64,000 nucleotides of DNA. Source: Escherichia phage ECML-134. Under the pieces are notes generated by a model. It saw only the letters and a program-made list of their open reading frames with translations, ran no database searches and was not told the DNA's origin. Below are positions 36,151 through 37,821 of the stretch, in pieces. Made by a program: the position numbers and the translations under genes. How positions within the stretch are numbered: position 1 is the stretch's first letter; every line of letters starts with the position of its first letter. The stretch lies in the sequence record JX128259. One strand, written 5' to 3'.

Positions 36151-36245
36151 TGTACGAAACGCCGGGATTCGAACCCGGTTATTAAGTAGTTGACGCTACT
36201 CAATATTTTTAAAAGGCCATATCTCGACCATATCCGAACGTTCCG
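36151..36245 (-). ncRNA. tRNA-like stable RNA candidate (non-canonical; possibly a T4 RNA C/D analogue)
   Basis: Reverse strand has a canonical T-arm CCGGGTTCGAATCCCGG and a 7-bp acceptor-like helix CGGAACG/CGTTTCG, but no standard D or anticodon arm. Confidence 0.3.
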
Positions 36246-36249
36246 TCAA

Positions 36250-36418
36250 AAACGCTACTCGGCTTATGGCAAAGATATTTCCTCGAATCGATAATTCGGT
36301 GCGCCGTTTCTGCTGTGATATAAGGGGGCATTAACAAAACATAAAGATTTATTAATGCCAGTCCTTAAACAGGGAACATCAGTCCGACGACTTGCCGGTA
36401 GCGACCCGGCTTCTTGTC
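36250..36418 (-). ncRNA. Possible second structured stable RNA between tRNA-Arg and the terminator
   Basis: No ORF; hairpins cgaatcgataattcg and gccggtagcgacccggc; co-transcribed position. Confidence 0.15.
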
Positions 36419-36494
36419 TGGTCGAGGCAGTAGGGATCGAACCTACGACCCAGGACTTAGAAGGTCCTTGCTCTTCCTTCTGAGCTATGCCTCG
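36419..36494 (-). tRNA. tRNA-Arg (anticodon UCU)
   Basis: Manual fold of reverse strand: acceptor CGAGGCA/TGCCTCG, D-stem GCTC/GAGC, anticodon stem AGGAC/GTCCT with loop CTTCTAA, T-arm GTAGG-TTCGATC-CCTAC, encoded CCA. Confidence 0.8.
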
Positions 36495-36498
36495 TATT

Positions 36499-36573
36499 TG
36501 GCGGACGTGATAGGATTCGAACCTATAACCAATCGCTTAACAGGCGATCGCTCTGCCATTGAGCTACACATCC
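36499..36573 (-). tRNA. tRNA-Asn (anticodon GUU)
   Basis: Manual fold: acceptor GGATGTG/CACGTCC, anticodon stem ATCGC/GCGAT with loop CTGTTAA, T-loop GGTTCGAATCC, encoded CCA. Confidence 0.75.
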
Positions 36574-36577
36574 AAAT

Positions 36578-36664
36578 TGGTGGGGAGTGGTGGAGTCGAA
36601 CCACCCGAGTCGCAATGACAATGGATTTACAGTCCACACCGCTACCTCTACGGGATAACTCCCC
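36578..36664 (-). tRNA. tRNA-Tyr (anticodon GUA), class II with long variable arm
   Basis: Manual fold: acceptor GGGGAGT/ACTCCCC, anticodon stem GTGGA/TCCAT with loop CTGTAAA, T-arm GGTGG-TTCGACT-CCACC, 87 nt, encoded CCA. Confidence 0.7.
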
Positions 36665-36673
36665 AAATTAATT

Positions 36674-36748
36674 TGGTGGCCCTGGGTGGAATTGAACCAC
36701 CATCTGGCGATTATGAGTCGCTTGCTTGAACCTTCCAGCTACAGGGCC
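36674..36748 (-). tRNA. tRNA-Ile/Met (anticodon CAU)
   Basis: Manual fold: acceptor GGCCCTG/CAGGGCC, anticodon loop CTCATAA, T-loop GGTTCAATTCC; one nt from tRNA-Thr (Thr-Ile dimer as in T4). Confidence 0.75.
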
Positions 36749-36749
36749 T

Positions 36750-36825
36750 TGGTGCTGATTGACGGAATCGAACCGCCGACCTTCTCATTACAAGTGAGTT
36801 GCTCTACCTACTGAGCTAAATCAGC
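36750..36825 (-). tRNA. tRNA-Thr (anticodon UGU)
   Basis: Manual fold: acceptor GCTGATT/AATCAGC, D-arm AGCTCAGTAGGTAGAGC, anticodon loop CTTGTAA, T-loop GGTTCGATTCC, encoded CCA. Confidence 0.8.
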
Positions 36826-36830
36826 AAAAC

Positions 36831-36920
36831 TGGCGGAGGCGATAGGATTTGAACCTATGAGTCGCCGGAGCGACTTCCGGTTTTCAAGACCGGTGCATTA
36901 AACCACTCTGCCACGCCTCC
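36831..36920 (-). tRNA. tRNA-Ser (anticodon UGA), class II
   Basis: Manual fold: acceptor GGAGGCG/CGCCTCC, anticodon stem CCGGT/ACCGG with loop CTTGAAA, long variable arm, 90 nt, encoded CCA. Confidence 0.8.
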
Positions 36921-36926
36921 AAATAT

Positions 36927-37535
36927 TTATATATTGTTAATTTGATTTAGAATTCTTTTTGCTTGAGTATGACTTACGCCAATATGCTTAGCATATTTAG
37001 ATAATTCACCACGTTTAGAAAAATCATATAATTTAGAAATTTCTATTCTTCTTTTTCTTTCATCCGCAGAAACTTTTGCTTCGTTTGCTTTTGCTATTTT
37101 ACGTTTAGCTTCTTGAGAATGAGTTTTACCAGCAAAGCCATTCTTCATTAATCCATTTGAAGACCATCCTTTTAATTTTCCGTTAGAATGTGCCTTTTTA
37201 ACACCCAATGAAATTAATTCGCGTTGCTGGTCTGTCATAGGATAATTATTTATATGATCCCATCCACCTTCACCGCCAAGTTTTAAATTATACACATCTG
37301 GTCTATTTAAAAACTCTTCTGTAACAATATTTTTCTCGGCTTTAAGCATAGATTCTTTATCATCAAAATACTCTAATATTTCTTTAGAAAAATTTTCTAT
37401 GCCATACTTATCTTGGGCTCTTTTTAATAATTTACCAGAACCCATATATCCATCATCTAAATTTTCGGTAGAATGCACACCAATATAAATTTTATTATTA
37501 ATTTTATTTGTTATTTTATAAAGATAAAAATGCAT
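36927..37535 (-). CDS. segB: GIY-YIG homing endonuclease SegB-like, embedded in the tRNA cluster
   Basis: GIY-YIG motifs FYLYKITNKINNKIYIGVH...YMGSG near the N-terminus; start MHFYLYK after aggga RBS; between tRNA-Gly and tRNA-Ser. Confidence 0.8.
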   Translation of the reverse strand: MHFYLYKITNKINNKIYIGVHSTENLDDGYMGSGKLLKRAQDKYGIENFSKEILEYFDDKESMLKAEKNIVTEEFLNRPDVYNLKLGGEGGWDHINNYPMTDQQRELISLGVKKAHSNGKLKGWSSNGLMKNGFAGKTHSQEAKRKIAKANEAKVSADERKRRIEISKLYDFSKRGELSKYAKHIGVSHTQAKRILNQINNI

Positions 37536-37581
37536 ATCAGTCCCTAATAAAGAACTGAGCGTCTCACGACGAGTCATAAAT

Positions 37582-37655
37582 TGGAGCGGATAATGAGAAT
37601 CGAACTCACATCATCAGATTGGAAGTCTGAGGTAATACCATTATACGATATCCGC
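37582..37655 (-). tRNA. tRNA-Gly (anticodon UCC)
   Basis: Manual fold: acceptor GCGGATA/TATCCGC, anticodon stem TCAGA/TCTGA with loop CTTCCAA, T-loop GGTTCGATTCT, encoded CCA. Confidence 0.8.
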
Positions 37656-37660
37656 AAATT

Positions 37661-37747
37661 TGGTGCGAGAAGTGGGACTCGAACCCACAAGGAAATCATT
37701 CCGCAGCATTTTAAGTGCTGTGCCTTTACCAATTTGACCATTCTCGC
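37661..37747 (-). tRNA. tRNA-Leu (anticodon UAA), class II
   Basis: Manual fold: acceptor GCGAGAA/TTCTCGC, anticodon stem CAGCA/TGCTG with loop CTTAAAA, long variable arm, 87 nt, encoded CCA. Confidence 0.8.
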
Positions 37748-37748
37748 G

Positions 37749-37821
37749 CTGGGAATAAAGGACTCGAACCTTTGCATCCTGGAATCAAAATCCAGTGCCT
37801 TACCAACTTGGCTAATTCCCA
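37749..37821 (-). tRNA. tRNA-Gln (anticodon UUG), CCA not encoded; two nt from tRNA-Leu (Gln-Leu dimer)
   Basis: Manual fold: acceptor TGGGAAT/ATTCCCA, anticodon stem CTGGA/TCCAG with loop TTTTGAT, T-loop GGTTCGAGTCC. Confidence 0.75.

Follow-up and report, generated by a model that had tools for sequence, protein, structure and literature searches.

A mosaic segB-like gene in the place of tRNA-Pro in the tRNA region of the T4-like Escherichia phage ECML-134

How has a T4-like tRNA region come to hold tRNA-Tyr and tRNA-Asn, and to lack tRNA-Pro just where an endonuclease-like open reading frame (ORF) adjoins tRNA-Ser? The question is raised by Escherichia phage ECML-134 (JX128259), of which a stretch of 64,000 nt was analyzed; this whole stretch is referred to here as the window, and all coordinates are window positions. 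The gene order in the window is Gln-Leu-Gly-[seg']-Ser-Thr-Ile(CAU)-Tyr-Asn-Arg-rnaD-rnaC-terminator, where seg' denotes the endonuclease-like gene and rnaD and rnaC are stable RNA genes. We are highly confident that the locus is the tRNA region of Tequatrovirus (T4-like coliphages) in one of its several known allelic arrangements. As in T4, it lies between the trna.2-4/internal-protein genes and rnaD-rnaC-e.8, in one orientation with Gln-Leu-Gly first, and it is collinear with T4 and RB68. Its content is that of the RB68/RB51 allele rather than that of T4, whose eight tRNAs (Gln, Leu, Gly, Pro, Ser, Thr, Ile, Arg) are not all found here: Pro is missing, and Tyr and Asn are present. We tentatively read seg' as a SegB-type homing endonuclease with an exchanged DNA-binding domain.

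Exactly nine tRNA genes were called by ARAGORN in the window. They all lie on the minus strand, from 36419 to 37821, and all nine scored above the gathering threshold of the Rfam tRNA family RF00005 (29 bits; observed range 30.3-74.1 bits). Eight of them reached 59-74 bits with E values of 1e-10 to 1e-14, far beyond chance. The ninth, tRNA-Tyr, is marginal in Rfam at 30.3 bits; it has a long variable arm, and generic tRNA models give tRNAs of this kind lower scores. tRNA-Gln lacks an encoded CCA and runs into tRNA-Leu without a spacer, like the Gln-Leu dimeric precursor of the T4 type. No gene for tRNA-Pro or tRNA-His was found by ARAGORN or Rfam, and no remnant of either was found anywhere in the window: blastn with the tRNA-Pro genes of T4 and a Klebsiella phage and with the tRNA-His gene of phage AR1 returned only chance matches of T-loop size. 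Remnants of the AR1 Asn-His spacer, of RB68 ORF139 and of T2L trna.1 were rejected on the same result. An earlier reading of this DNA, made from its letters without database searches (the sequence-only reading), had folded nine minus-strand tRNAs with these identities, had placed Tyr and Asn in the cluster and had found Pro missing where the endonuclease ORF adjoins Ser. ARAGORN and Rfam, with blastn for the missing Pro, confirm each of these points at the positions given there; neither program re-assigned a tRNA or turned up an overlooked tRNA-Pro (the Met label that ARAGORN attaches to the CAU tRNA is discussed below). Its statement that the classical T4 set includes Pro, and neither Tyr nor Asn, agrees with the T4 map.

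The arrangement is an ordinary one and is already annotated in GenBank, in about 60 phage genomes. When a 2.2-kb region was compared against a collection of 50,697 phage records, 1023 records matched it, 60 of them across at least 80% of its length. The nearest relative is Escherichia phage vB_EcoM_SCS4 with 99.7% DNA identity over the region, and RB68, RB51, AR1, RB18, HY01, ESh25, PhiZZ30 and many other Tequatrovirus genomes are 97-98.7% identical. Records named as Campylobacter, Pseudomonas and Providencia phages also match at 95% or more; these are probably mislabelled or contaminated and do not indicate true hosts. In the same collection, a Tyr-Asn block was found in 394 records and the 3' half of a T4-type segB in 67 (each with at least 80% of its length covered), so Tyr and Asn are mainstream content for T4-like coliphages and the T4 set is a minority. 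The description of the isoacceptor set as non-T4 in the sequence-only reading thus holds, but the set is common rather than unusual.

Breakpoints between the window and T4 (NC_000866, 70.9-72.5 kb; order Gln-Leu-Gly-Pro-Ser-Thr-Ile-segB-Arg-rnaD-rnaC) were mapped by blastn. T4 homology runs through tRNA-Gly and ends at 37577, 5 nt past the Gly 3' end. Positions 37521-37247 match the first 275 nt of T4 segB at 97.8% identity, positions 37246-36922 have no T4 counterpart, and homology returns at 36921, one base upstream of the tRNA-Ser 5' end, continuing through tRNA-Thr and 12 nt into the CAU tRNA. A 655-bp endonuclease cassette therefore stands cleanly in the place of tRNA-Pro and its 5-nt spacer. 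T4 homology is missing again over the remainder of the CAU tRNA, over Tyr and Asn, and over the 5' part of Arg (the 5' half of tRNA-Arg(UCU) being unrelated to its T4 namesake), and this CAU-Tyr-Asn-Arg block occupies the place of Ile-segB-Arg in T4. Homology picks up again inside Arg and extends over rnaD, rnaC and the terminator at 90% identity.

The seg' ORF fills the gap between tRNA-Gly and tRNA-Ser and encodes a GIY-YIG protein of 202 aa (36927-37535) or 216 aa (36927-37577), depending on which of two in-frame ATG codons is used. The likely start is the ATG at 37535 (MHFYLYK...), which agrees with the annotated start of T6 SegB and with the Tyr17/Gly19 numbering of the dead T6 mutants; the second ATG, at 37577, falls within a conserved leader. 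T6 has the same leader behind tRNA-Tyr, and Klebsiella phage KP13MC5-5 has it behind tRNA-Gly; each time it begins directly after the tRNA CCA. Within it, a hairpin (37558-37537) carries a Shine-Dalgarno-like AGGGA in its 3' strand, and a hairpin sequestering the ribosome-binding site has been proposed to repress segB in T4 (PMC2330249).

The two halves of seg' have different affinities. The GIY-YIG domain is recognized by Pfam PF01541 (26.1 bits, cut-off 22.6) and by the homing endonuclease family phrog_314 (E = 1e-53), and in alignment it keeps Tyr17 and Gly19, the residues mutated in dead T6 SegB (PMC13096335). Codons 1-96 are 95.5% and 97.9% identical in nucleotide sequence to T4 and T6 segB, respectively, and the encoded residues are about 95-98% identical to SegB. 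Residues 97-202, in contrast, are unrelated to T4 and T6 SegB at the DNA level and give a weak protein alignment in which only a NUMOD3-like motif resembles SegB; the C-terminus has a helix-turn-helix-like tail, as judged by eye. The ORF in the Pro position had been named segB in the sequence-only reading, which fits its N-terminal catalytic half and fails for its C-terminal half, so that full orthology to SegB does not hold. Nor does its location correspond to the insertion site of SegB, upstream of tRNA-Arg in replacement of tRNA-Asn: it stands between Gly and Ser, with Asn left intact. A sequence search of the PDB for a solved structure related to seg' returned nothing meaningful. The C-terminal domain matches phrog_16521, as does a stand-alone T2L ORF, trna.1 (133 aa; 584-985 of the AJ880101 extract), which sits in the place of T4 tRNA-Thr and is related to the C-terminal domain of seg' only, at 41% identity. 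From its sequence, trna.1 may be an endonuclease remnant without its GIY-YIG domain, or a stand-alone DNA-binding protein.

A collinear homologue of seg', also 202 aa long and 77% identical, is found in KP13MC5-5 (genus Jiaodavirus), between tRNA-Gly(UCC) and an intact tRNA-Pro. The ratio of nonsynonymous to synonymous substitution rates (dN/dS) between the two is 0.23 overall, 0.15 in the N-terminal and 0.28 in the C-terminal domain, so both domains are under purifying selection. The synonymous rate itself differs between the domains (dS 1.5 in the N-terminal against 0.40 in the C-terminal), and together with the near-identity of the N-terminal domain to T6 segB this marks seg' as a mosaic gene. 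The pattern indicates that a Tequatrovirus SegB catalytic module and the DNA-binding module of the seg' lineage were brought together by recombination inside the ORF. Its distribution is sporadic, as expected of a homing endonuclease. In T4, T2L and T6, Gly is followed by the next tRNA with no ORF in between, and an uninterrupted T4-type Gly-Pro-Ser junction was found in 439 records (at least 80% covered) against 54 carrying the seg' C-terminal domain at 95% amino acid identity or more. The variant with seg' for Pro is thus a smaller yet well-sampled sub-lineage.

Several properties of the Tyr-Asn block bear on how seg' may act. The window tRNA-Asn is 100% identical to that of T2L, flanks included. 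The T2L Tyr and Asn genes were described by Brok-Volchanskaya et al. (2008; PMC2330249), who mapped the preferred 27-bp site of T4 SegB inside T2L tRNA-Asn (core GGTTCRANTCC, cut after CCAR); ECML-134 therefore carries this site. The same study found that SegB cuts the 3' ends of many tRNA genes, including Gly, Pro and Ser, and that its homing replaces about 1250 bp holding the Met(CAU), Tyr, Asn and Arg genes. The window tRNA-Tyr differs from T6 tRNA-Tyr by 1 nt, an anticodon-stem G-U pair in T6 being G-C here. In T6, tRNA-Tyr rescues infection from the Septu defence, which cleaves tRNA-Tyr, and a 718-bp Tyr-segB unit undergoes SegB-driven tandem amplification; T4, without tRNA-Tyr, is unable to escape Septu (Chihara et al., 2026; PMC13096335). 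Both the Tyr/Asn allele (in T2L, published in 2008) and the anti-Septu role of the near-identical T6 tRNA-Tyr (published in 2026) are therefore already known.

Codon use was compared between 61 long window ORFs (16,122 codons, 35% GC) and the ORFs of a 49-kb segment of E. coli K-12, a single control segment rich in ribosomal protein genes, so that the phage/E. coli ratios given here are rough: GGA 3.9, AGA 3.7, AUA 3.5, UUA 2.7, UCA 2.5, ACA 2.1, CAA 1.4 and CCA 1.4. For amino acid totals the ratios were 1.9 for Tyr, 1.5 for Asn and 0.8 for Pro. Seven of the tRNAs would read the A-ending codons CAA, UUA, GGA, UCA, ACA, AUA and AGA, which the phage uses 1.4-3.9 times more than E. coli, and Tyr and Asn would serve amino acids in higher demand than in the host. 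The ratios fit a supply role for Tyr and Asn, and fit Pro as the most dispensable of the T4 set.

Taken together, these observations lead us to a reading that we put forward as a possibility, short of a probable account: seg' would be a natural domain-swapped SegB (with NUMOD3 and a helix-turn-helix-like tail) retargeted from the 3' end of tRNA-Asn to the Gly/Pro junction, its homing would explain the clean loss of tRNA-Pro, it could amplify neighbouring anti-defence tRNAs as T6 SegB does, and rnaC (see below) would be a covariation-supported, tRNA-shaped RNA and a likely substrate of RNase P. By analogy with T4, the block would be transcribed as a polycistronic precursor, from which host RNase P, 3' trimming and CCA addition would release the nine tRNAs and two stable RNAs. 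tRNA-Tyr may have a second role in making good the tRNA lost to defences that cleave tRNA-Tyr, such as Septu and retron-Eco7, a role suggested because the T6 tRNA-Tyr has been shown to act in this way. We attribute the differences in gene content from T4 to SegB-family free-standing homing endonucleases, which cut tRNA 3' ends, and to recombination between tRNA genes. In T4, segB sits in the place of Tyr-Asn, and in T6 in the place of Asn; in the window the Tyr-Asn allele is intact with its T4 SegB site, seg' follows directly on the tRNA-Gly CCA, and the removal of tRNA-Pro is clean. On this arrangement, seg' would be an active homing endonuclease with its target in the Gly/Pro junction region or at the 3' end of tRNA-Gly, and tRNA-Pro would have been lost during or after its insertion.

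Some observations weigh against this account. KP13MC5-5 keeps tRNA-Pro beside its seg' homologue, from which it follows that insertion of seg' does not by itself require the loss of Pro. The same gene order weakens a more specific idea modelled on the replacement of Asn by SegB, namely that seg' took the place of Pro through cleaving tRNA-Pro. The NUMOD3 match in seg' reaches 20.2 bits, just under the Pfam cut-off of 20.4. The annotators of RB68 and RB51 named the ORF a 'truncated SegB-like protein'. For Asn, no defence system targeting this tRNA was found in the literature searched, and the codon ratios share the roughness of their control.

The alternative that survives best, although we consider it unlikely, is that seg' retains the specificity of T4/T6 SegB, cutting tRNA T-arms in a relaxed manner, so that its position is a matter of chance and its main present role is amplification of adjacent tRNA genes as in T6, in place of homing to a Gly/Pro site. 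A catalytic domain nearly identical to that of SegB, the range of tRNA 3' ends that SegB cuts and the amplified T6 unit are all in keeping with it. In GIY-YIG homing enzymes such as I-TevI and its relatives, however, the C-terminal domain carries DNA-binding specificity, and in seg' this is the domain unrelated to that of SegB. In addition, the exact preferred SegB site is kept in tRNA-Asn, a gene that neither T4 nor T6 retains. Both points suggest that seg' has another target, and a specific site is favoured by the presence of the seg' lineage behind tRNA-Gly(UCC) in two genera.

It is improbable, in our estimate, that seg' is instead a decaying, inactive segB remnant and that Pro was lost through an unrelated deletion, for example by recombination between tRNA genes. 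Such recombination does delete tRNAs in this region (in T6 it has left a Pro/Thr hybrid, and Ser is gone), the RB68 and RB51 annotations point the same way, and T2L trna.1 looks like an endonuclease remnant. But seg' itself is not truncated: the ORF is intact in the 54 records and full-length and collinear with its homologue in another genus, both catalytic residues are kept, dN/dS is low in both domains, and the C-terminal domain, different as it is, is itself conserved. Finally, that Tyr and Asn are pseudogenes or passengers with no translational role is very improbable. In its favour are the marginal Rfam score of Tyr and the observation that T6 tRNA-Tyr appeared relatively unstable and was itself cut by Septu; against it, ARAGORN calls both genes, Asn has the top score of the cluster, Tyr is conserved across T6, T2L and AR1 with its anticodon stem kept through compensated changes in the Klebsiella-phage copy, T6 tRNA-Tyr was seen on a northern blot besides rescuing infection (PMC13096335), and both the 394 records with the block and the codon ratios speak for use.

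The CAU tRNA is best read as Ile(CAU), a putative lysidine-dependent reader of AUA, and not as the Met of the ARAGORN label. Among 5,424 E. coli genomes its best match is an annotated tRNA-Ile (81.6% over 75 nt, the full length), with which it shares an identical acceptor stem GGCCCU and an identical 17-nt anticodon stem-loop, AGCGACUCAUAAUCGCC; for this reason Ile is preferred over Met, as the sequence-only reading had proposed. A CAU anticodon is thus combined with the body and stems of tRNA-Ile2 rather than those of tRNA-Met. Ikeuchi and co-workers are said to have identified C4-G69 and C5-G68 as determinants for TilS in 2005. The allele in the window is that of T2L and AR1; compensated stem changes set it apart from the one in T4 and T6.

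Beyond the tRNAs, the block ends in rnaD and rnaC, both conserved in 678 phage records. rnaC is collinear with its T4 counterpart, with few substitutions over 139 nt and the same place after rnaD; both RNAs are nearly identical to those of T4, with scattered substitutions that lie mostly in rnaD, the same order after tRNA-Arg and no material difference. The function of T4 rnaC and rnaD is unknown (PMC3014915, PMC9697503); T4 rnaC (~140 nt) accumulates as a stable RNA on northern blots (PMC9697503). Rfam holds no family for either RNA, and its sole match at 36151-36245 was to the tRNA-Sec model, weakly (17 bits, E = 5.4). Homologues of rnaC are also embedded in tRNA arrays across several Tevenvirinae genera, in Karamvirus and other relatives, and in Karamvirus-type phages can have tRNA-Trp and tRNA-Gly as neighbours; examples are Cronobacter phage Pet-CM3-4 (401-545 of the extract) and Enterobacter phage MY742 (401-551 of the extract). 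The Karamvirus-type copies are unannotated or lie under 'hypothetical protein' calls, and that of MY742 has the T-loop UGCAUGC in place of the canonical UUCGAAU.

Covariation was assessed in a 14-sequence alignment of rnaC. In the minimum free energy (MFE) structure of the full-length RNA, 98.6% of cells pair, compared with 39-45% for slid controls, and 12 pairs are changed on both sides, a number reached in none of 500 shuffles. The structure has a terminal helix that joins the mature 5' end to the 3' end and stacks beside a T-arm (CCGGG-UUCGAAU-CCCGG, one compensated pair), a 10-bp arm with an invariant CGUCAA loop (7 of 10 pairs compensated) and a long arm of about 70 nt. rnaC may thus be regarded as a tRNA-shaped RNA; because these related sequences amount to no more than a few independent lineages, the covariation is supportive and not conclusive. 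The sequence-only reading had described a tRNA-like element at 36151-36245, downstream of Arg, and its guess that this is an RNA C/D-like stable RNA was correct, since the element is part of rnaC. The T-arm hairpin GGUUCGAAUCC is present there, and an isolated 97-nt fragment does form an 8-bp helix. However, the interval covers only the 3' two-thirds of rnaC, with the 5' side cut short, and rnaD, which lies between Arg and rnaC, had been overlooked. The acceptor helix proposed there, built on an internal 5' strand, was also rejected as the main fold because covariation favours pairing with the mature 5' end: its sole variable pair is G-U in 8 of the 14 sequences, G-C in one and an A-C mismatch in five, whereas in the competing terminal helix an A-U pair (8 of 14) changes to G-C (6 of 14). 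Coordinates of all features are given in Table 1; fold z-scores of rnaC and rnaD were computed against shuffled controls.

Table 1. Features of the tRNA region of phage ECML-134, in window positions.
Feature	Position	Strand	Basis
tRNA-Gln(UUG)	37748..37821	-	ARAGORN; Rfam 67.4 bits; in a block of 94.6% identity with T4
tRNA-Leu(UAA)	37661..37747	-	ARAGORN; Rfam 59.3 bits
tRNA-Gly(UCC)	37582..37655	-	ARAGORN; Rfam
seg' 5' leader	37536..37581	-	Alignment; starts right after CCA of tRNA-Gly
seg' N-terminal GIY-YIG catalytic domain, codons 1-96	37248..37535	-	Pfam PF01541; identity to segB
seg' C-terminal putative DNA-binding domain, codons 97-202 and stop	36927..37247	-	No T4 homology; NUMOD3-like motif; phrog_16521
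tRNA-Ser(UGA)	36831..36920	-	ARAGORN; Rfam
tRNA-Thr(UGU)	36750..36825	-	ARAGORN; Rfam
tRNA-Ile(CAU), labelled Met by ARAGORN	36674..36748	-	ARAGORN; Rfam; alignments
tRNA-Tyr(GUA), class II	36578..36664	-	ARAGORN; Rfam 30.3 bits
tRNA-Asn(GUU)	36499..36573	-	ARAGORN; Rfam 74.1 bits (best of the cluster)
tRNA-Arg(UCU)	36419..36494	-	ARAGORN; Rfam
rnaD (species 2 stable RNA)	36297..36416	-	Transferred from RB68 and T4 annotations; fold z = -3.4
rnaC (species 1 stable RNA), 139 nt, tRNA-like, four helices	36153..36291	-	RB68/T4 alignment; fold z = -5.2; covariation
Intrinsic-terminator-like hairpin and T run, closing the RNA gene block	36079..36102	-	Predicted; conserved with T4

Other observations concern the cassette and its surroundings. 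The window tRNA-Arg(UCU) shares its acceptor stem with that of RB68 (1883-1959 in the RB68 extract) and differs in the D-loop, anticodon stem and T stem; the anticodon- and T-stem changes are compensated and the flanks are about 97% identical, which suggests allele exchange inside the cassette. A tRNA-His(GUG) lies between Asn and Arg in AR1 (1647-1722 of the extract) and RB18 (1258-1333 of the extract), so that the variable cassette can hold up to three of the four tRNAs with GUN anticodons (Tyr, Asn and His). tRNAs of this type form the queuosine family and are substrates of colicin E5, and this set raises the question whether anticodon-nuclease pressure is a cause of its assembly. Four minus-strand ORFs flank the RNA block (34862-35425, 35551-36024, 38838-39071 and 39157-39447) and share the start MK[TS][YF].EF, which in the first three runs on to EA and which we take to resemble the sequence that targets T4 internal proteins to the capsid. 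Of these ORFs, the upstream pair matches 'internal virion protein' families of PHROG and the downstream pair consists of phrog_2280 paralogues; on the annotated T4 map there is no gene between rnaC and e.8. These motifs and matches place the tRNA block within a variable region of possible injected or anti-restriction cargo.

As a discovery the arrangement matters little, given its presence in GenBank. Its value is that of a worked example of how tRNA-targeting homing endonucleases and tRNA-gene recombination shuffle the tRNA cargo of T-even phages. Less evident are the mosaic endonuclease with its likely retargeting, the SegB site left intact in Asn, and the true length and folding of rnaC. 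The exchanged DNA-binding domain makes seg' a natural test case for changes of target in GIY-YIG enzymes, and the covariation-supported fold of rnaC may aid work on this RNA, which has for decades had no known function.

Compared with known systems, the window is closest to vB_EcoM_SCS4, ESh25, PhiZZ30, RB68/RB51, AR1 and RB18 (GenBank ON506924, ON528735, MT176426, KM607004, FJ839693, AP011113 and MH553563), which share its gene order at 97-99.7% DNA identity. ESh25 has exactly the window arrangement. RB68 is annotated as Gln, Leu, Gly, the SegB-like ORF, Ser, Thr, Met(CAU), Tyr, Asn, Arg, one ORF, rnaD and rnaC; this 116-aa ORF between Arg and rnaD is also present in RB51, AR1 and RB18 and absent from the window, as is the extra tRNA-His of AR1 and RB18. 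The RB18 annotation already records a segB with 'C-terminus divergent' and a CAU anticodon that is probably modified (Ile).

T4 shares with the window both flanks (trna.2-4 upstream; rnaD, rnaC and terminator downstream) and the orientation, and its Gln, Leu, Gly, Ser and Thr genes are 94-96% identical. It differs in having Pro, in a segB with its own C-terminal domain between Ile and Arg, in the lack of Tyr and Asn, and in other alleles of Ile and Arg. T2L (AJ880101) has the order Gln-Leu-Gly-Pro-Ser-[trna.1]-CAU-Tyr-Asn-Arg-[trna.2]-rnaD-rnaC. Its CAU-Tyr-Asn-Arg block is the same as that of the window, with identical Asn and CAU tRNAs and a Tyr that differs at two positions, and is the recipient allele cut by T4 SegB in tRNA-Asn (PMC2330249). 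Unlike the window, T2L keeps Pro and has no seg gene, with ORF trna.1 in the place of Thr and ORF trna.2 after Arg. The order in T6 (AP018814) is Gln-Leu-Gly-'Thr'-CAU-Tyr-segB-Arg. Its annotated tRNA-Thr (2643-2717 of the AP018814 extract, minus strand) is a hybrid, with the 5' acceptor strand CTCCGTG from tRNA-Pro and the remainder from tRNA-Thr, so its acceptor stem cannot pair and ARAGORN makes no call; it looks like a recombination deletion at the shared TAGCTCAG box that took the whole of Ser together with the greater part of Pro and the beginning of Thr. T6 thus resembles the window in its tRNA-Tyr, in a segB leader that is the same as that of seg' and in the catalytic domain (97.9% identical), and differs in a segB with a T4-type C-terminus placed between Tyr and Arg, in the lack of Ser and Asn, and in the broken Pro/Thr hybrid gene.

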